Assembly (NCBI GenBank): GCA_934130285.1 | Contig: CAKOXT010000001.1 | Span: 165,082 to 229,081, forward strand | Source: an uncultured Clostridia bacterium | Lineage (GTDB): Bacteria; Bacillota; Clostridia; TANB77; CAG-508 | Direction: 5' to 3' | Length of the DNA: 64,000 bases | In this document: piece by piece, positions 6,185 to 60,482 of the stretch | Layout of the letters: every line of letters starts with the position of its first letter | Position numbering within the stretch: position 1 is the stretch's first letter | Translations under genes and position numbers: made by a program | The notes under the pieces: generated by a model | Told to the model about the DNA's origin: nothing | The model's input: the letters and a program-made list of their open reading frames with translations, nothing else | The model's database searches: none

Positions 6185-7312
6185 ATGGGAAAAAAAGATA
6201 CAAATGTTAAAAAATCAAAGAAGGTGAAGCGTGCAAAAAGGAAGGGTACATTTGCAAAAATTTTACTTATTGTATTAATATTGGCATTGATAGGAATTAT
6301 ATCATTACTGTTTTTATTATATGGCCCATGGAGTGGATTTAGAGATTGGTTAATAACAACGGCAATGTCTTCAATGAGACACCAATATTTAGCTACATGG
6401 TTTTATGATGATAAAACTATTCAAGAGTGTTTAAATAAAAATAAGGTTGTAGAAGTTAGTGGCGTTACTGATGAAAACACAATTGAAATTGTTGATTATG
6501 ACAAAAAAGAAGAAGTTGTTTATGCCAATGAGTACGAAAGACAAATTTTAGAAAAAGATGAAAATAATAATGATTATAAAATAATAAAAATAGATGGCGG
6601 AAATGATTATGAAGGGTATATGGCAGTTATATATGATCCGTCTAGAATTGAAGTTGCTACATCATCTTATATAGGAAGAAGCGGAGAATATTTAACAGAT
6701 ATTTCAAAGAAGAATAATGCTTTGGTTGCTATAAATGGTGGAGGTTTTATTGATGAGAATAATAAAGGAAGTGGAGCTACTCCACTAGGAATTACTATGA
6801 GCAAAGGAAAGTTATTAAGTAATTCCGGTGGTACATTCGGATTGATAGGATTCAATAATGAAAATAAATTGTTGTTGGGTAAGATTACTTCAACTCAAGC
6901 TAAACAAAGAGGAATACGTGATTGTGTTTCTTTTGGACCATATTTAATATTAAATGGTGAAAAATCGCAGATATATGGAAATGGTGGTTGGGGAAAAGCT
7001 CCAAGAACTGCTATTGGACAAAGAGCAGATGGAATAGTTCTATTCTTAGTGCTTGATGGAAATAGAACATTAGGAAAAGGTGCTACAATTAAAGATATGA
7101 TTGAAATATTTGAAAGATATGGTGCGATAAATGCTTCAAATTTGGATGGAGGAACATCTACATCTATGACTGTAAAAGGAAAGACTGTTAATAATCCAAC
7201 TAATTTGTCAGGTGGAAGTGGAACAAGACCTATACCATCAGCATTTATATTAAAAGCAGATGATTCTGATGATGGTGATTATAGCGCAGTAAAAAATAAG
7301 GTAGATAAATAA
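6185..7312 (+). CDS. phosphodiester glycosidase family protein (NAGPA-like, DUF2233)
   Basis: N-terminal basic/TM anchor. Conserved NGGGF and DGGTSTSM motifs typical of this family. Confidence 0.65.
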   Translation: MGKKDTNVKKSKKVKRAKRKGTFAKILLIVLILALIGIISLLFLLYGPWSGFRDWLITTAMSSMRHQYLATWFYDDKTIQECLNKNKVVEVSGVTDENTIEIVDYDKKEEVVYANEYERQILEKDENNNDYKIIKIDGGNDYEGYMAVIYDPSRIEVATSSYIGRSGEYLTDISKKNNALVAINGGGFIDENNKGSGATPLGITMSKGKLLSNSGGTFGLIGFNNENKLLLGKITSTQAKQRGIRDCVSFGPYLILNGEKSQIYGNGGWGKAPRTAIGQRADGIVLFLVLDGNRTLGKGATIKDMIEIFERYGAINASNLDGGTSTSMTVKGKTVNNPTNLSGGSGTRPIPSAFILKADDSDDGDYSAVKNKVDK

Positions 7313-7372: not shown

Positions 7373-7407
7373 AAAAAATAGCAGATTAATAGTCTGCTAT
7401 TTTTGTG
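7373..7407. terminator. bidirectional terminator (agcaga...tctgct) between convergent genes
   Basis: Hairpin flanked by an A-run and a T-run. Confidence 0.55.
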
Positions 7408-7717
7408 TGTTACGATAGTTATTTCCCCATTTAACCATTGAATCTAAAATTGGTTGTAAACTCCAACCAGTATCTGTAAGAGAATATTCTACTCTTGGAG
7501 GAACTTCTGCAAAAACTTCGCGATGAACCAAACCTGATTTTTCCATATCTCTTAAATTATTGGTTAGAACCTTTTGACTTATTCCAGTAAGGGATTTTCT
7601 AAGTTCACCAAATCTTTTTTTACCAGTTAATAAGTCACGAATAATTAATATTTTCCATTTATCTCCTATAAGTCCCATTGTAATTTCAACTGGACAAGCT
7701 GGCAATTCAGTTTTCAT
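7397..7717 (-). CDS. HxlR-family (DUF24, MarR-like winged helix) transcriptional regulator
   Basis: CPVE...GDKWK...FGEL...ISQKVLTNNLR...GLVHREV...VEYSLT signature. Confidence 0.85.
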   Translation of the reverse strand: MKTELPACPVEITMGLIGDKWKILIIRDLLTGKKRFGELRKSLTGISQKVLTNNLRDMEKSGLVHREVFAEVPPRVEYSLTDTGWSLQPILDSMVKWGNNYRNTQK

Positions 7718-7875
7718 TATAATTCAACTCCATTCTTTTTATCTATAAAAAGTATAACAAATTAATTTCGAAATGTAAACAAAATACTGTAAAATCAGCG
7801 ATACTTTCTTTTGGAATGTAATAGCAATATAAGTATACAATAAAATTTTATAAAGCGGAACTATTGAAAATACAT

Positions 7876-7946
7876 AAGAGTTACTTTAAGGTAACTATGA
7901 AACAAAAAAGTGCCTACTTTACAAGTGCTTTAGGTAAAATTAAAAT
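7876..7946 (+). promoter_or_regulatory. copy 1 of a 47-bp regulatory module: inverted repeat AGTTAC-N6-GTAACT (7879-7896) plus TTTACA-17-TAAAAT promoter (7918-7946)
   Basis: Near-identical to the copy at 8842-8909. It lies in the divergent region between the hxlR-like gene and gene 8010. Confidence 0.6.
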
Positions 7947-8009
7947 GGTTTTAGAAATTGAAAATAGAGTAGCTACTAATTCAATAAATATAATAAGGAG
8001 TGAATAAAA

Positions 8010-8804
8010 ATGGAGAATAAAAAAATAAATTTAGGAAAAGGAATTATTGAGATTTATGATTTTGGAGACATAAAATTACATTGCTATCAAACAAATGATT
8101 TTATGAATGATGAAAGTTACATTTTAGAAAATGCTGAAAATGTTTTATTAGTAGAATTCCCTGCATTTTATGATAATTTGGAAGAGTTTGAAAAATATGT
8201 TATAGGATTAAATGAGAATATAGTTGGAAAAGTATTTTCTGATCATCCAAATGGAGCTACTATTTTAAAAGATGTTAAAGGATATGCTTCAGAAGGTACT
8301 ATAAGATCAATGAAAGCAGGAACAATTCATAATTTAGTAACTGGATTTGAAAAATCTTTTAATGGAGCGTTTGCTAAAGAATTGCACGAGATTACTGATG
8401 TATTAAAAGATGAACATGTTAATATAGGAGGCTTTGAATTAAATTTAACTTATCATGATGAGAACGTAGAAATTGAATTTCCTCAAATAGGATGTGTATA
8501 TACTCATATGCTAGGACATGATTGTCATTCAATAGTTGCAGGAGAAGAACATGCAAATGCAATTATAAATCAATTGAAAGAATATAAAAATAAGGGATAC
8601 AGATTGGTTTTATCAAGTCATTATGTACCAGAGACTTTGAAAGATGTTGATACTAAGATTGATTATCTTGAAAATTTAAAAGAATTGGCAAAGGAAAGTG
8701 AAAATGCTGAGGTGTTTGAGAAGAAGGTTAAGGATAGATATCCTGAGTATAGTGGTTTAAATTATTTGGATATGACAGCTGGATTTTTCTTTCCAAATAA
8801 ATAA
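8010..8804 (+). CDS. hypothetical protein (His-rich motifs, possible metal-dependent hydrolase fold)
   Basis: ORF with an AGGAG RBS. Contains YTHMLGHDCH and SSHY motifs but no canonical HxHxDH. Confidence 0.5.
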   Translation: MENKKINLGKGIIEIYDFGDIKLHCYQTNDFMNDESYILENAENVLLVEFPAFYDNLEEFEKYVIGLNENIVGKVFSDHPNGATILKDVKGYASEGTIRSMKAGTIHNLVTGFEKSFNGAFAKELHEITDVLKDEHVNIGGFELNLTYHDENVEIEFPQIGCVYTHMLGHDCHSIVAGEEHANAIINQLKEYKNKGYRLVLSSHYVPETLKDVDTKIDYLENLKELAKESENAEVFEKKVKDRYPEYSGLNYLDMTAGFFFPNK

Positions 8805-8841
8805 TTAAATATAATTTTGCTATTTTGATATATATGCTAAA

Positions 8842-8909
8842 AGTTACTTTAAGGTAACTATGGAACAAAAAAGTGCCTACTTTACAATATGTAAGGTAGG
8901 TTTTAAAAT
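8842..8909 (+). promoter_or_regulatory. copy 2 of the 47-bp module: inverted repeat (8842-8859) plus TTTACA-17-TAAAAT promoter (8881-8909)
   Basis: 46 of 47 bp identical to copy 1. Upstream of the macrodomain-sirtuin operon. Confidence 0.6.
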
Positions 8910-8938
8910 ATATCTTATAGAAAATTAAGAGGTAGTAA

Positions 8939-9730
8939 ATGGATAATTTGGATTATTTAATAAAATATTTGTTAGAAGAAAACAAAAATATTGATATTGA
9001 AGAGATTCCTAAAGATTTGAAAGAAAAACAAAAGTTATATCGTTCATTATGTAATGTTAGAGATGCTATGCCAATATCAGAGAAGTATTTGGAAGTTGAG
9101 AATGAATATTTACAAGAAGAAATTAAGAAAAGAGATATTGTTGATTTAAAAGGTATATCTAGTAGTATTGTTGATGGTAGCACGAAGATTAGTTTATGGA
9201 AAGGTGATATTACTTTGCTTAAAATTGATTGTATTGTTAATGCTGCTAATTCTCAAGGGTTAGGATGTTTTATCCCTTGCCATAAGTGTATTGATAATAT
9301 TATTCATTCTACTGCTGGAGTTCAGTTAAGAATTGCATGTAACGAAAAGATGAAGAATATCGGTATATTAAAAACTGGAGAAGTGTTTTTAACAAAAGGA
9401 TATAATTTACCAGCAAGATTTGTTATTCATACAGTAGGACCTATTATTCATAATGTTGTGACAAAAAAGGAAAAAGCAGAATTAGAGAAGTGTTATATTA
9501 ATTCATTAAAGATAGCTAAAGATGCTGGAATAAAAAATATAGCTTTTTGTTGTATTTCAACAGGTGAGTTTAGATTCCCAAAAGATTTAGCAAGTGAAAT
9601 TGCTGTGAAAGCGGTAAAAAAATTTTTAAAACAAAATGAAGATTTTTTTGAAATGATTATTTTTGATGTATTTTCAGATGAGGATTATGATATTTACTTA
9701 GAAAAATTAGGTGATGTATATGGAATATAA
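8939..9730 (+). CDS. macrodomain protein (ADP-ribose binding / ADP-ribosyl hydrolase, MacroD-like) with about 80-aa N-terminal extension
   Basis: Macro motifs IVNAANSQGLGC and ISTGEFRFP. Overlaps the next gene by 20 nt. Confidence 0.8.
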   Translation: MDNLDYLIKYLLEENKNIDIEEIPKDLKEKQKLYRSLCNVRDAMPISEKYLEVENEYLQEEIKKRDIVDLKGISSSIVDGSTKISLWKGDITLLKIDCIVNAANSQGLGCFIPCHKCIDNIIHSTAGVQLRIACNEKMKNIGILKTGEVFLTKGYNLPARFVIHTVGPIIHNVVTKKEKAELEKCYINSLKIAKDAGIKNIAFCCISTGEFRFPKDLASEIAVKAVKKFLKQNEDFFEMIIFDVFSDEDYDIYLEKLGDVYGI

Positions 9731-10556
9731 AGATAGAATTTTAAAAGTAAGAGATTTATTAAAAGAAGCGGATTATGTTTTAATTGGCGCTGGTGCAGGT
9801 TTATCTACAGCTGCTGGTATGGAATATAGTGGAGAGAGCTTTGAAAAAAACTATAGAGAATTTATTGATAAATATTATTTCGATAATTTGTATTCTGCAT
9901 CTTTTTATGATTTTAAGACTCAGGAGGAAAAGTGGGCTTTTTTTGCGAAGATGATTAAATTGAATAGATATAATGATAAGCCTTTACAGTTATATCAAGA
10001 GCTTTATGAATTAGTTTGTTCAAAGGATTATTTTGTGTTATCTACGAATGTTGATGGACAATTTTATAATAGTGGGTTTGATGCTGAAAGAGTGTTTGAG
10101 ATTCAGGGAGATTACTGCTTTTTACAATGTGAAAATGCATGCCATGATAAATTGTATTATAATAAAGAATTAGTAGAGAAATGGATACAAAATACAAAAG
10201 ATTGTAAGATTCTGTCTGACTTGGTTATGAAATGTCCAGTTTGTGGCGGAAATATGGATATGAATTTAAGAAAAGATGCTAATTTTGTGCAAGATAAGAA
10301 TTGGCATGTTCAAGCAAAAAAATATGAGGAGTTTATTAATAATGCTAAAGATAAAAAAATGGTGTTGTTAGAAATAGGAGTTGGATTTAATACTCCTGGT
10401 ATTATTAGGTTTCCTTTTGAGAGAATGGTAGAAGAAAATGAAGATACATATTTAGTTAGAATTAATAAAGAGTATCCTTCTGCAATATTAGATATAAATG
10501 ATAAGTTAGTTTCTTTTAATGAGAATGTAAGTAAAATAATAGGAGATTTGAAATGA
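9711..10556 (+). CDS. SIR2-family protein, SirTM-like (macrodomain-linked sirtuin, predicted protein ADP-ribosyltransferase)
   Basis: Rossmann motif GAGAGLSTAAG, TNVDGQF motif and a Cys-rich zinc ribbon (CFLQCENAC...CPVCGG). The operonic link with the macrodomain is the class-M hallmark. Confidence 0.7.
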   Translation: MMYMEYKDRILKVRDLLKEADYVLIGAGAGLSTAAGMEYSGESFEKNYREFIDKYYFDNLYSASFYDFKTQEEKWAFFAKMIKLNRYNDKPLQLYQELYELVCSKDYFVLSTNVDGQFYNSGFDAERVFEIQGDYCFLQCENACHDKLYYNKELVEKWIQNTKDCKILSDLVMKCPVCGGNMDMNLRKDANFVQDKNWHVQAKKYEEFINNAKDKKMVLLEIGVGFNTPGIIRFPFERMVEENEDTYLVRINKEYPSAILDINDKLVSFNENVSKIIGDLK

Positions 10557-11491
10557 TTATAAATACTGGTTGCAGAACTGATATACCAGCTTTTTATTCA
10601 AAGTGGCTGATGAATAGAATTCATGAGGGCTATGTTTTAGTACGAAATCCTTATTATCCTGAACAGGTTATAAAATATAGATTAGATCCAAGTGTGGTAG
10701 ACGGTATGGATTTTTGTACGAAAAATCCAAAACCAATGTTGAAATATTTAGATGAATTAGATAAGTTTAGACAATACTGGTTTGTAACGATTACACCATA
10801 TGGTAAGGATATAGAACCTGTAGTACCGGATAAAGAAGAGGTAATAGAAAGTTTTAAAAAGTTGTCAGAACATGTTGGTGAGAATTGTGTTGGTTGGAGA
10901 TATGATCCAATTTTTATGAACGAAGATTTTGATGTTGATAAGCATATAGAGTGTTTTGAAAAAATGGCAAAACAGTTAAATGGATATACACATAATTGTA
11001 CAATTAGTTTTTTAGATTTGTATGAAAAAGTAAAAAGAAATGCGCCTGATTTAAGACAGCCTACTAAAGATGAGCAAATTAGAATCGCTAAGGCTTTTTA
11101 TAAAATAGGGAAAAAGAATAATATGGTGATATATAGCTGTTGCGAAAATAGTTATTTGGCCCAATATGGACTTAATTGTGAAGGTTGCAGAAGTCAAAGT
11201 TTAGTTGAGAAATCATTAGGTGTAAGCCTAAAACCGCCTAAGAGAAAGAGCTTGAGACAGCAATGTAATTGTTTAATGGGAAATGATATAGGTGCATATA
11301 ATACTTGTGGACATATGTGTAAGTATTGCTATGCAAATGAAAATAAGAAATTGGTTGTAGAGAATATGAAAAAACATGATGATAATTCACCTTTTTTAGT
11401 TGGAAGATTAAATAATGATGATATAGTTACAGAAGCTAATCAAAAGAGTTGGATTGTAAATAGGAATGAACAAATTTCTTTTTGGGGTTAA
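10553..11491 (+). CDS. DUF1848-like protein with C-terminal Cys cluster (CxxxCxxC)
   Basis: Start overlaps the sirtuin stop (ATGA). The N-terminus MIINTGCRTDIPAFYSKW is typical of DUF1848. C-terminal CNC...CGHMCKYC. Confidence 0.55.
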   Translation: MIINTGCRTDIPAFYSKWLMNRIHEGYVLVRNPYYPEQVIKYRLDPSVVDGMDFCTKNPKPMLKYLDELDKFRQYWFVTITPYGKDIEPVVPDKEEVIESFKKLSEHVGENCVGWRYDPIFMNEDFDVDKHIECFEKMAKQLNGYTHNCTISFLDLYEKVKRNAPDLRQPTKDEQIRIAKAFYKIGKKNNMVIYSCCENSYLAQYGLNCEGCRSQSLVEKSLGVSLKPPKRKSLRQQCNCLMGNDIGAYNTCGHMCKYCYANENKKLVVENMKKHDDNSPFLVGRLNNDDIVTEANQKSWIVNRNEQISFWG

Positions 11492-11524
11492 AGTCAAAAT
11501 GGTGATATGTTTGATAGGTGAAAT

Positions 11525-11555
11525 AAAAGTAGACTAAAAGAGTCTACTTTTATTT
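11525..11555. terminator. bidirectional terminator (gtagact...agtctac)
   Basis: Hairpin with flanking A-run and T-run between convergent operons. Confidence 0.65.
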
Positions 11556-12146
11556 TTAGTTATAATTATTCATATAAAATTTCTTTTGGGCTAATTTTTC
11601 TTGAACACCATTTAATGCTTCACCAAATCTTTGGAAGTGGACTACTTCACGCTCTCTTAAGAAACGTAATGGATCTACGACGTCAGGATCGTCTGCACAA
11701 AGATCAATCAATTTTTCGTATGTTGCTCTAGCTTTTTGTTCTGCAGCAAGGTCTTCAGTTAAGTCGGTTACTGGATCACTTGTTACTTGAAGTGTGGCAG
11801 CACTAAAAGGTGTTCCACTAGCAGCTTGAGGATATGTTCCCCAACCATGATCAGTAAAGTAAGCACCTAGTCCTGCTTTTTCTAATTCTTCGGGACAAAC
11901 GCCGTCAGTTAATTGGTGAACCATACTACTTACCATTTCTAAGTGAGCTAGTTCTTCGGTGCCGATATCATTTAAAATGGCTTTTGATTTTTCATCTGGC
12001 ATACTTATTCTTTGAGAAATATATCTAAGAGCTGCGCCAATTTCGCCGTCTGGTCCACCATATTGTGAAATAATAAATTTGGCTAATCGTGGATTAGTGT
12101 TTTTTATTCTTACAGGATATTCTAATTTCTTTTGATATAACCACAT
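11556..12146 (-). CDS. cotJC: spore coat protein CotJC (manganese catalase-like)
   Basis: Mn-catalase fold residues (EELAHLEM, HFQRF). Third gene of a cotJ-type operon. Confidence 0.85.
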   Translation of the reverse strand: MWLYQKKLEYPVRIKNTNPRLAKFIISQYGGPDGEIGAALRYISQRISMPDEKSKAILNDIGTEELAHLEMVSSMVHQLTDGVCPEELEKAGLGAYFTDHGWGTYPQAASGTPFSAATLQVTSDPVTDLTEDLAAEQKARATYEKLIDLCADDPDVVDPLRFLREREVVHFQRFGEALNGVQEKLAQKKFYMNNYN

Positions 12147-12415
12147 TAGTAACTACCTCCTTTTTCCCAAGGCCATGGCTGTTCTAGCCAGCGCCATTTA
12201 TTACAAGGACATTCTATTGATAGAGGTCCATACATTTTTTGATAATTATCTGTTAACATTCTTAACTTGTTGGCATTTTCATTATGAAGACACAAAGCTC
12301 TTTTGTCATCTGGATTTATGTCTAAATATAGCCCAAGTTCAATAACGGTAAAGTTTACAGCTCGTATTTCATCTAACATTTCTGATCTTGTTTGTTGGCA
12401 ATTTCCGTCCATCAT
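12146..12415 (-). CDS. cotJB: spore coat protein CotJB
   Basis: Small protein with the CotJB-type sequence (VNFTVIELGLYLD...NPDD), overlapping cotJC. Confidence 0.8.
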   Translation of the reverse strand: MMDGNCQQTRSEMLDEIRAVNFTVIELGLYLDINPDDKRALCLHNENANKLRMLTDNYQKMYGPLSIECPCNKWRWLEQPWPWEKGGSY

Positions 12416-12777
12416 GAATTACAGCCACCTCCAATTGTATTTGAATTTTTTAAATAATTTATAGTTTCTAATGATTGATTTGGACAATATGGACTAACGA
12501 GTTCTGGGAAAATTGTGCCCATTTTTAATCCGATTTCTGGTGTGTATACTTGATTCATTCTTTGGTGAGGAACATAACAATGTCCATACATCCAATTTTG
12601 AGGGAATGCTGATGTGTTTGTAAAACCACATGAACATGTTGTGTCATTTTCCATATTTCCATAATTATAATTTTGAATCATGTTACAAGATTCTTCGTAC
12701 ATAGTATTTGACGTGAAACTATTGGTATCTGTATTGTTTGAAAGATTGTTATATGAACAATTACAATTTCTAAACAT
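12412..12777 (-). CDS. cotJA: spore coat-associated protein CotJA (with N-terminal Asn/Cys-rich extension)
   Basis: C-terminal CotJA-like motif (YVPHQ...GTIFPEL..PY). Overlaps cotJB by 4 nt. Confidence 0.65.
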   Translation of the reverse strand: MFRNCNCSYNNLSNNTDTNSFTSNTMYEESCNMIQNYNYGNMENDTTCSCGFTNTSAFPQNWMYGHCYVPHQRMNQVYTPEIGLKMGTIFPELVSPYCPNQSLETINYLKNSNTIGGGCNS

Positions 12778-12990
12778 TAAAATTCCTCCTTTTATAATAA
12801 TAAAATATGATTTTTTTTACAAAATGTGCTAAAAACATTTGCGATTATAAGAGTATGTGTTATAATTTGTTTGACAGAAATTACTATTTATTTACAAAAC
12901 AGTATAAAGAGAGTTAAAAATGATTGAAGTTAAATAAGTGGTAATATCGTATTAAAAAATTATAAAACCTAGGAGGATAAGGAAGAAAAT

Positions 12991-17606: not shown

Positions 17607-18257
17607 ATGATTTTAAAAACTTTAAAGTTACATATTGGTCATATGAATCTTGTGACTAATTGCTATATAATAGTTGATGAAGAAACTAAAGAAACTATGG
17701 TTATAGATCCTGGTGCTGAGCCAGAAAAAATTATAGAGATGCTAGATATTTTAGATGCAAAATTAAAATATATATTTTTAACACATTGTCATGCTGATCA
17801 TATTGGAGCTGTTGATGCACTTAGAGATGCTAAAGGTGGAAAAATTTTAATAAGTAGAGATGATAGTACAGGTTTATATGATTCGTCTATCAGTTTAACT
17901 TATTATACAGAGACTCATAATCCAGAACTTGAGCCTGATTCAAGGGTAGACGATGGGGATTTGATTCATGTTGGAAATATAGAATTTAAAGTAATTGCAA
18001 CACCAGGACATACTAAAGGAGGACTTTGTTTATATTGTCCTTCTGAGGAAATGATTTTTACGGGTGATACTATTTTCTCAGGATGTTGGGGAAGAACGGA
18101 TTTACCTACTGGAAGCATGGAAGATATTATGGATTCAATTACTAGAAAAATTTTAGTTTTGCCGGATAATACAATTATTTATCCTGGACATGGAAAATCC
18201 ACAATGATAAAAGAAGAAAAACCTATATATTTAGAACTTAGAAAAAAAGATTATTAA
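17607..18257 (+). CDS. MBL-fold metallo-hydrolase (hydroxyacylglutathione hydrolase-like)
   Basis: HCHADHIG motif plus downstream His/Asp ligands. 216 aa. Confidence 0.8.
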   Translation: MILKTLKLHIGHMNLVTNCYIIVDEETKETMVIDPGAEPEKIIEMLDILDAKLKYIFLTHCHADHIGAVDALRDAKGGKILISRDDSTGLYDSSISLTYYTETHNPELEPDSRVDDGDLIHVGNIEFKVIATPGHTKGGLCLYCPSEEMIFTGDTIFSGCWGRTDLPTGSMEDIMDSITRKILVLPDNTIIYPGHGKSTMIKEEKPIYLELRKKDY

Positions 18258-60044: not shown

Positions 60045-60482
60045 ATGGAGTATGAAAAAATCAAACAATTAATGGATGATATGGGAAATTCAAAATTATC
60101 TTCAATTGATATTGATTTTCCTGATGGTACTAAGATTAGTATGAAGAAAAATGAAAATGTTGAGGCAGCAATAAAAACAGTGGTTGTTGAAAATAAAGAG
60201 GTTAAAACGGAAGAATCTGAATCAACAAAATTAAGTGATGAAAATGCAGGAAATATTGTAAAATCTCCTATGGTTGGTACTTTTTACATAAAGCCTAATC
60301 CTAGTGCAGAGCCTTATGTTGAGGTTGGAAAGAGAGTTAAAAAGGGTGATGTTCTTTGTATAGTTGAGGCTATGAAGCTTATGAATGAGATTGAGTCTGA
60401 GTTTGATGGGGAAGTTGCTGAAATTCTTGTTAAAGATGGTGAGGCTGTTGAGTATGCTAAACCTTTATTTAGGATAGTTTAA
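60045..60482 (+). CDS. accB: acetyl-CoA carboxylase biotin carboxyl carrier protein
   Basis: Biotinyl-lysine motif EAMKLMNEI. Confidence 0.9.
   Translation: MEYEKIKQLMDDMGNSKLSSIDIDFPDGTKISMKKNENVEAAIKTVVVENKEVKTEESESTKLSDENAGNIVKSPMVGTFYIKPNPSAEPYVEVGKRVKKGDVLCIVEAMKLMNEIESEFDGEVAEILVKDGEAVEYAKPLFRIV

Follow-up and report, generated by a model that had tools for sequence, protein, structure and literature searches.

What could a class-M sirtuin (SirTM) be modifying where GcvH-L, to our knowledge the only SirTM substrate known so far, is not encoded beside it? The question is raised by a 64,000-nucleotide stretch of DNA from an uncultured Clostridia bacterium of the CAG-508 lineage (GenBank assembly GCA_934130285.1, contig CAKOXT010000001.1, positions 165,082 to 229,081 of the forward strand), which we call the window and number from its first letter. 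It carries an operon in which a macrodomain gene and a sirtuin gene are followed by a gene of the DUF1848 family:

8939..9730, + strand: Zn-dependent macrodomain (Zn-Macro) of MacroD type, a protein-ADP-ribose hydrolase by its matches to NF003163, PDB 8rsi and SauMacro (5kiv)
9720..10556 (alternative GTG start at 9711), + strand: SirTM, a predicted protein mono-ADP-ribosyltransferase by its match to PDB 5a3a
10553..11491, + strand: DUF1848 protein (PF08902, 1.4e-98), a predicted permuted radical S-adenosylmethionine (SAM)-like iron-sulfur (Fe-S) enzyme

The core of this locus is a genuine SirTM/Zn-Macro system of the "lone-pair" type that has been described before, and it is hence known. In the literature we searched, the recurrent DUF1848 partner, the operator architecture associated with an HxlR-family regulator, and the accessory genes (a metallo-β-lactamase (MBL)-like protein here, an ACGX system in sister loci) appear to be undescribed. 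We think it probable that the whole is an HxlR-controlled stress operon, whose SirTM and Zn-Macro would put ADP-ribose on, and take it off, a target with a functional tie to DUF1848.

The sirtuin and macrodomain pair

The macrodomain protein matches Pfam Macro (6.3e-36) and the NCBIfam model NF003163, "protein-ADP-ribose hydrolase" (323 bits, cut-off 272, model residues 2–258). Its PDB matches are full length: 8rsi is the closest (2e-71), and SauMacro 5kiv (1.9e-65) and 8RSL (about 2e-65) are the others. Zn-Macros are defined by a zinc loop, Cx(4)HxC, together with NAAN and Dx3H motifs (Ariza 2024, PMC11490716). For membership we looked for Cx(4)HxC where a glycine-rich catalytic loop would otherwise be, for NAAN, for an Asp/His dyad and for an N-terminal three-helix extension, and the window protein has them all. 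Its zinc loop, C110-FIPC-H115-K-C117, pairs with the equivalent residues of 8rsi; NAAN lies at 101–104 (VNAAN), the dyad is D119-x3-H123 (DNIIH), an ISTGEF motif is present, and the alignment to 8rsi runs over residues 3–255 and includes the N-terminal 80 residues that hold the helical extension. Zn-Macros are reported to be able to cleave Cys-ADP-ribose (PMC11490716).

The sirtuin matches Pfam SIR2 weakly (6e-4), SpySirTM (PDB 5A3A) strongly (2.9e-57 over residues 13–278), and, in a fungal protein that fuses macro and SirTM (8RSN), the SirTM half at 1.5e-26; it is 36% identical to SpySirTM in our alignment (A1). The original prediction had tentatively treated as an oddity the reading QG at the position of the sirtuin catalytic HG. 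The FEIQGDY sequence in question is real and pairs with SpySirTM FHIQGEY, and Q129-G130 is invariant in the alignment (residue numbers follow the 278-amino-acid protein that starts at ATG 9720). However, replacement of HG by QG is the very motif that defines class M (Rack 2015, PMC4518038). In SpySirTM the catalytic trio Gln137/Asn118/Arg192 is required for ADP-ribosylation (Rack 2015, PMC4518038; PMC8120803). In the window protein Q129 and R184 are invariant in the alignment, and N110 (in TNVDG) pairs with the Asn of SpySirTM TNADN, which is missing in the fungal sequence. The NAD-binding GAGxS motif (GAGAGLSTAAG) and a four-cysteine zinc ribbon are also present. By sequence, then, the window sirtuin is a class-M SirTM with the full catalytic set N110/Q129/R184, and a predicted protein ADP-ribosyltransferase; characterised SirTMs act on protein. 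Given their scores, motifs and catalytic residues, both it and the macrodomain protein are standard members of their families, and QG is no anomaly. The prediction of a macrodomain-linked class-M sirtuin operon is thus borne out by the NF003163 and 5A3A matches and by the presence in the translations of every motif that had been listed for it, and the alignment that had been proposed as a check on the sirtuin places it in class M with its NAD-binding and catalytic residues retained.

The three genes are tightly packed. The macrodomain and sirtuin genes had been said to overlap by 20 nucleotides; they do overlap, and by that amount if translation of the sirtuin begins at GTG 9711, but an overlap of 11 nucleotides, from ATG 9720, is more probable since that is the start chosen in public gene calls (giving 278 amino acids) and AGGTGA precedes it. 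The predicted ATGA overlap of the sirtuin and DUF1848 genes is present, with AGGAG 7 nucleotides upstream, and through it DUF1848 is translationally coupled to SirTM.

Absence of GcvH-L and LplA2 from the surroundings, which had also been predicted, was upheld. Probes for GcvH and LplA were E. coli sequences validated against Pfam (1.5e-50 and 9.8e-62, respectively), and with them neither GcvH-L nor LplA2 was found by tblastn and phmmer in the window or in 181 related loci that we fetched (denoted L with a number below). A precomputed Pfam list of the region within 10 kb on either side of the operon likewise contains neither. The sole lipoyl/biotinyl-type domain in the window is that of AccB, a biotinyl carrier encoded at 60045-60482. 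The lack of GcvH-L and LplA2 does not make the operon non-canonical, as had been claimed, since SirTM/Zn-Macro pairs without GcvH-L/LplA2 ("operon" or "lone" pairs) have already been described in Clostridiaceae, Veillonella, Enterococcus, Treponema and Methanobrevibacter oralis (Rack 2015, PMC4518038; Ariza 2024, PMC11490716). The targets of lone pairs were stated to be unknown (PMC4518038; PMC11490716). The lone-pair operons of M. oralis, Clostridium bolteae, Veillonella parvula and Enterococcus faecalis resemble that of the window: Zn-macrodomain and class-M sirtuin lie side by side in the same orientation, with the same catalytic motifs and no GcvH-L or LplA2. The window adds to these a coupled third gene (DUF1848), an MBL-fold gene and two copies of an operator module of HxlR type. 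In the portions of Rack 2015 and Ariza 2024 available to us, whose main text and supplements were searched, there is no mention of DUF1848, radical SAM, HxlR, an operator module or an MBL gene, and our literature search found no paper that ties SirTM to DUF1848, radical SAM or HxlR.

The extended operon of Staphylococcus aureus and Streptococcus pyogenes encodes GcvH-L, a Zn-Macro, a SirTM and LplA2, with LLM and OYE oxidoreductases. What it shares with the window operon is a writer/eraser pair of the same motifs, close packing with gene overlaps, ties to redox enzymes and a part that it is proposed to play in oxidative stress; unlike it, the window (and the 181 loci) has no GcvH-L, LplA2, LLM or OYE. 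In the window DUF1848 and an MBL-like protein are the partners. In the known system ADP-ribosylation needs prior lipoyl modification, and the staphylococcal operon is reported to be induced by oxidative stress (PMC4518038).

DUF1848 as a partner of the pair

We surveyed the neighbours of SirTM and of DUF1848 in 80 loci each, those nearest to the window proteins, and the frequencies given here are accordingly not family-wide. The SirTM survey covered species-level genome loci of 42–74% identity, with neighbours counted within 4 kb; Zn-Macro was found in 73 of the 80, HxlR in 42, the 264-amino-acid MBL-like protein described below in 13, and DUF1848 in nine. The DUF1848 survey covered metagenome loci of 50–76% identity and counted direct adjacency; in 27 of the 80, SirTM and/or the macrodomain gene is directly adjacent, and these two are the commonest neighbour families of the window-type DUF1848 subfamily. 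Survey of the genomic context had been suggested as a check on the DUF1848–sirtuin linkage, and the linkage proves to be recurrent. With M, S and D for macro, SirTM and DUF1848, the linked gene orders are M-S-D (in the window's clade and in a second clade), D-M-S, M-D-S, S-D-M, S-M-D and D-M. The linked loci are spread over several clades in both the DUF1848 and the SirTM trees, and the gaps between their genes are mostly below 100 nucleotides or are overlaps. If the genes have stayed adjacent although their order was rearranged in separate lineages, a functional tie accounts for this better than simple shared descent does, and DUF1848 is therefore predicted to be a recurrent functional partner of the SirTM/Zn-Macro pair, not a chance neighbour.

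What DUF1848 itself does is suggested by its cysteines and its company. The window protein covers the whole Pfam DUF1848 model (positions 1–262 of 262). Nine cysteines are invariant, three of them in a C-terminal C252-x3-C256-x2-C259 motif. DUF1848 has no match to Pfam Radical_SAM, and nothing significant was found for it in the PDB by single-sequence and profile searches. In the radical SAM superfamily the [4Fe-4S] motif CX3CX2C follows β1, whereas in DUF1848 it sits at the C-terminus, where it is modelled with a pLDDT (predicted local distance difference test) score below 50. Flavodoxin, FMN-reductase, nitroreductase and PNPOx/ferredoxin (Fer4) genes are recurrent neighbours of DUF1848. From the invariant cysteines with their CX3CX2C motif and from these redox-type neighbours, we infer that DUF1848 is a circularly permuted radical-SAM-like Fe-S enzyme.

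Outside the SirTM context (L176, a Planktothrix plasmid; L177, Parabacteroides; L087-L090; L002; L114-L116) DUF1848 has DNA- or nucleotide-related neighbours: AlkB at a distance of one gene, a DNA/RNA endonuclease, Tag, thymidine kinase and, in L002, Ogt several genes upstream. It also adjoins a flavodoxin there. DUF1848's own function may concern nucleic acids. The window DUF1848 also matches, at 7.8e-42, PADLOC's model for the DUF1848 protein that accompanies the UG25 reverse transcriptase, a partnership reported by Mestre (2021 preprint). A 32%-identical homologue lies at 319196-319948 on two 735-kb "uncultured phage" records of megaphage size (LR756501.1 and LR756503.1). A DraG-family ADP-ribosylglycohydrolase gene (PF03747, 1.3e-73) adjoins DUF1848 on its upstream side in L153, L154, L166 and L173, and another lies 1 kb downstream of the M-S-D operon of L131 (7985-8935); this would be a second, weaker tie of DUF1848 to the metabolism of ADP-ribose, and as it is confined to one lineage and L131, we give it little weight. 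In L180 (Subdoligranulum variabile OY725880.1) a Zn-macro homologue of 44% identity (12261-12920) lies about 5.3 kb from a 34%-identical DUF1848; the two are on opposite strands, and the homologue is at the margin of the stretch that we fetched. This may be a looser macro–DUF1848 linkage in Oscillospiraceae.

The promoter module and the putative regulator

Upstream of the operon lie a divergent regulator gene, a further cargo gene and two copies of a promoter/operator module:

7397..7717, - strand: winged-helix regulator of the HxlR/DUF24 family (Pfam HxlR 1.2e-34; NCBIfam RrpB-like 5e-40, below the cut-off)
7875..7924, + strand: module copy 1, with palindrome 7879-7896, AAAGTGCCTAC element and -35 TTTACA 7918-7923; its -10 TAAAAT is at 7941-7946
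8010..8804, + strand: open reading frame of the 264-amino-acid protein (divergent MBL fold), with its own module copy
8838..8887, + strand: module copy 2, with palindrome 8842-8859 and -35 TTTACA 8881-8886; its -10 TAAAAT is at 8904-8909

Copy 1 precedes the 264-amino-acid protein gene and copy 2 the macro-SirTM-DUF1848 operon. They form a 50-nucleotide direct repeat, identical at 48 of 50 positions, so the promoter module that had been said to be common to the operon and its upstream neighbour is real. A promoter scan found a -35/-10 pair, TTTACA-17-TAAAAT, in each copy. The palindrome AGTTAC-N6-GTAACT occurs at just these two sites in the 64 kb, which, scored on both strands, makes four matches against 0.16 expected by chance. 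Two short open reading frames within the module copies (7897-8007 and 8860-8928, M(K/E)QKSAYFT...), one of which is a 36-amino-acid public gene call, are probably not genes, and we rejected them because their ATG is not conserved across the aligned promoters.

In related loci a bipartite element, AGTTWCTTT-N2-GGWAACT ... AAAGTGCYTACTTTAC running into the -35, is located between hxlR and the first cargo gene. It is kept in 15 aligned promoter regions, including those of loci with SirTM identities of only 45–74%, two Methanobrevibacter loci among them. Methanobrevibacter SirTMs are 49–55% identical to that of the window, and the shared box together with these homologues suggests that a regulated cassette has moved between gut Clostridia and methanogens. 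The hxlR/macro/SirTM loci of Methanobrevibacter that keep AGTTAC-N6-GTAACT are L024 (box 7105-7122) and L074 (box 6675-6730); L011, L012, L017 and L043 are related.

The HxlR/DUF24 family includes B. subtilis HxlR, YodB, CatR and HypR and C. jejuni RrpA/B, and an N-terminal Cys is typical of thiol sensing by DUF24 regulators. Like these, the window regulator is a small winged-helix protein with an N-terminal Cys, divergent from genes of redox or detoxification type, with a palindromic operator at the promoter. Its cysteine, Cys8, lies in a CPV motif that keeps this residue in 45 of the 52 linked HxlRs. From this arrangement we propose that HxlR acts on the duplicated module. Recurrent neighbours of the SirTM/macro pair include Rrf2, NmrA-like NAD(P)H-binding, PNPOx-like, flavin-reductase and SnoaL proteins. 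The regulator's Cys, the box and such redox-type neighbours together bear the hallmarks of a regulon for redox or electrophile stress, in agreement with the oxidative-stress induction of the staphylococcal operon.

The 264-amino-acid protein shows the αβ/βα sandwich of the metallo-β-lactamase superfamily and has a divergent MBL fold. It lacks the canonical HxHxDH motif, with HMLGHDCH in its place, and does not match Pfam Lactamase_B; no match at all was found in Pfam, in NCBIfam or, by single-sequence and profile searches, in the PDB. Its conserved residues are H79, H166, H173, H204, E49 and E208. It is unrelated to a canonical MBL protein of Lactamase_B/ODP type that is encoded 3' of relA in the window (17607-18257, + strand, 5.3e-34).

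Candidate targets and competing explanations

Taken together, the locus would encode a stress-regulated, reversible protein ADP-ribosylation module of the lone-pair SirTM/Zn-Macro type. In this proposal the HxlR/DUF24 protein, a thiol-based sensor, would act on the duplicated module and so drive the MBL-fold gene and the Zn-Macro/SirTM/DUF1848 operon. SirTM would use NAD+ to mono-ADP-ribosylate a specific protein, and the Zn-Macro, with its Cx4HxC, NAAN and Dx3H motifs, would take the ADP-ribose modification off again. The pair would thereby switch DUF1848, or a protein on which DUF1848 acts, off and on under oxidative or electrophile stress. Two precedents prompt the idea of such a switch. 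One is GcvH-L, a target encoded in the same operon as its SirTM. The other is DraT/DraG, which control the Fe protein of nitrogenase by reversible mono-ADP-ribosylation; here the parallel is a functional analogy only, of an ADP-ribosylation pair encoded beside an oxygen-sensitive Fe-S enzyme, and the DraT/DraG writer and eraser differ from the window pair in coming from unrelated families.

The main rival holds that the genes are merely co-regulated: the SirTM/Zn-Macro pair, DUF1848 and the MBL-like protein would each be independent cargo of a modular HxlR regulon, induced together, and the SirTM target would lie elsewhere. HxlR is the commonest shared neighbour (in the 42 of 80 SirTM loci already mentioned), and one operator box stands in front of varied cargo. 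The SirTM–DUF1848 tie rests on genomic context and, in surveys confined to the nearest relatives, is not obligate; 71 of the 80 related SirTM loci are without DUF1848 within 4 kb, and HxlR/macro/SirTM loci without DUF1848 occur. Conversely, a DUF1848 of about 75% identity is found in HxlR/264-amino-acid-protein/DUF1848 loci that have neither macro nor SirTM, and others equally similar lie beside Tag with only a SirTM remnant. In view of these loci DUF1848 should not simply be regarded, as it was in the original prediction, as standing in place of GcvH-L and LplA2. More distant DUF1848 proteins of 30–42% identity (in Planktothrix, Parabacteroides, Methanosphaera and "phage" contigs) have no adjoining SirTM or macro. 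Finally, a deletion seen in two independent metagenome samples joins, in frame, macro residues 1–133 to SirTM residues 58–280 (L092 4944-5999 and L094 4334-5389, against the intact L091 4306-5999, with flanks about 99.8% identical). It removes the C-terminal half of the macrodomain protein and the NAD-binding N-terminus of SirTM, and so destroys the pair while DUF1848 is left intact.

Against mere co-regulation stand the retention of adjacency across five or more gene orders and in different clades of the two trees, mostly with short gaps or overlaps, and the fact that SirTM and macro are by far the commonest neighbours of this DUF1848 subfamily. In addition, some linked loci (for example L126 and L128) have no HxlR within 3 kb. 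On this evidence we regard co-regulation as the whole explanation to be unlikely, though it deserves to be taken seriously, and we favour a pair whose target is functionally tied to DUF1848.

The SirTM/macro/DUF1848 cluster is evolutionarily unstable at the strain level, with decayed or partly deleted versions in close relatives. In L088-L090 a SirTM remnant lies 5' of DUF1848, and in L097 and L098 a truncated SirTM abuts hxlR.

If the target is tied to DUF1848, one candidate is DUF1848 itself, a tentative identification that we hold to be possible and no stronger than that. The locus and its relatives offer further co-encoded candidates in the MBL-fold protein and, in sister operons, peptides of an ACGX system, and they supply a candidate regulator in HxlR with its operator. 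The sister operons are a second extended type of SirTM operon. One of them is that of Roseburia sp. 831b, a cultivable strain (L175, NZ_CP135163.1, 49000-54720), where RefSeq annotates a helix-turn-helix regulator and then acgA, acgM, a nitroreductase, a 4Fe-4S protein, a protein-ADP-ribose hydrolase, Sir2 and DUF1848; the regulator is an HxlR homologue by tblastn and lies on the strand opposite to the operon. The product of acgA is a Cys-rich peptide of ACGX repeats, and that of acgM is a radical SAM/SPASM maturase (TIGR04340, 606 bits). Parts of this type are found in eleven further loci. The set is complete in L120, L124 and L131, has split PNPOx/Fer4 and SirTM matches in L113, and wants only the nitroreductase in L121; L051, L107, L159, L129, L013 and L075 carry variants. 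A literature search on "ACGX" returned unrelated uses only. In its logic, the pairing of the small acgA peptide with a maturase recalls that of the GcvH-L carrier with LplA2, and by this analogy the peptide could be a carrier or a target.

A fuller version of the DUF1848 proposal is that DUF1848 is the substrate of the lone-pair SirTM, that its ADP-ribosylation, possibly on Cys, from which only Zn-Macros are reported to remove the modification, switches off or protects the enzyme under HxlR-sensed stress, and that the ACGX peptides are carriers in the sister operons as GcvH-L is in staphylococci. So complete a scheme we consider rather doubtful. If true, it would raise the number of classes of SirTM target from one to three and provide the first control by ADP-ribosylation of a radical-SAM-like enzyme. 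The DUF1848 linkage in any case offers a first candidate for a lone-pair target that can be put to the test, and through it DUF1848, a widespread family that lacks both a structure and an assigned function and occurs also with a defence-associated reverse transcriptase, would gain its first functional context.

The sister operons also bear on a second rival, in which DUF1848 would be a modifier comparable to LplA2, acting on a carrier that SirTM then ADP-ribosylates. The carrier would be the ACGX peptide in the sister operons and, in the window, the MBL-like protein or a carrier encoded elsewhere. The combination of acgA/acgM, nitroreductase and PNPOx/Fer4 with Zn-Macro, SirTM and DUF1848 would fit this, as would the need for prior lipoylation in the known system and the ability of Zn-Macros to cleave ADP-ribose from Cys. 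However, neither acgA nor acgM was found in the window by a six-frame regular-expression search, and the obvious maturase for an ACGX peptide is AcgM, not DUF1848; we judge a modifier role decidedly unlikely. The last explanation, a nucleic-acid or conflict system in which DUF1848 repairs or modifies DNA or RNA while SirTM/Zn-Macro either have nucleic acids as their substrate or form a toxin and its antidote in the manner of DarT/DarG, can draw on the UG25-partner match and on the Tag, Ogt, thymidine kinase, AlkB and endonuclease neighbours of DUF1848, but it is highly improbable given that PADLOC returned nothing for SirTM, the macrodomain protein or the 264-amino-acid protein, that the window has housekeeping and sporulation neighbours and no defence island, with no reverse transcriptase in the Pfam lists of the genes that flank the operon, that characterised SirTMs modify protein, and that redox-type neighbours predominate.

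The module in which a SirTM/Zn-Macro pair would act on a DUF1848-linked target is set off from its surroundings on the downstream side by the following features:

11521..11555, strand undefined: perfect 15-bp inverted repeat with a 5-nucleotide loop and A/T runs at its flanks (inverted-repeat search)
11556-12777, - strand: cotJC (Mn-catalase family)/cotJB/cotJA spore-coat operon, converging on the DUF1848 terminator

A terminator scan of the window gave none within the macro-SirTM-DUF1848 operon. The hairpin 3' of DUF1848 is probably a bidirectional terminator for this operon and the convergent cotJ operon; being AT-rich, it is not listed by the G+C-based terminator scan. The HxlR gene is divergent from the operon on the other side. 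The G+C content is about 27–32% across the operon region. The closest genomes to the locus are metagenome-assembled genomes of uncultured gut Clostridia, and identical copies of the operon proteins are encoded on many human-gut metagenome contigs. The cotJ neighbourhood downstream of DUF1848 is not conserved among the related loci.

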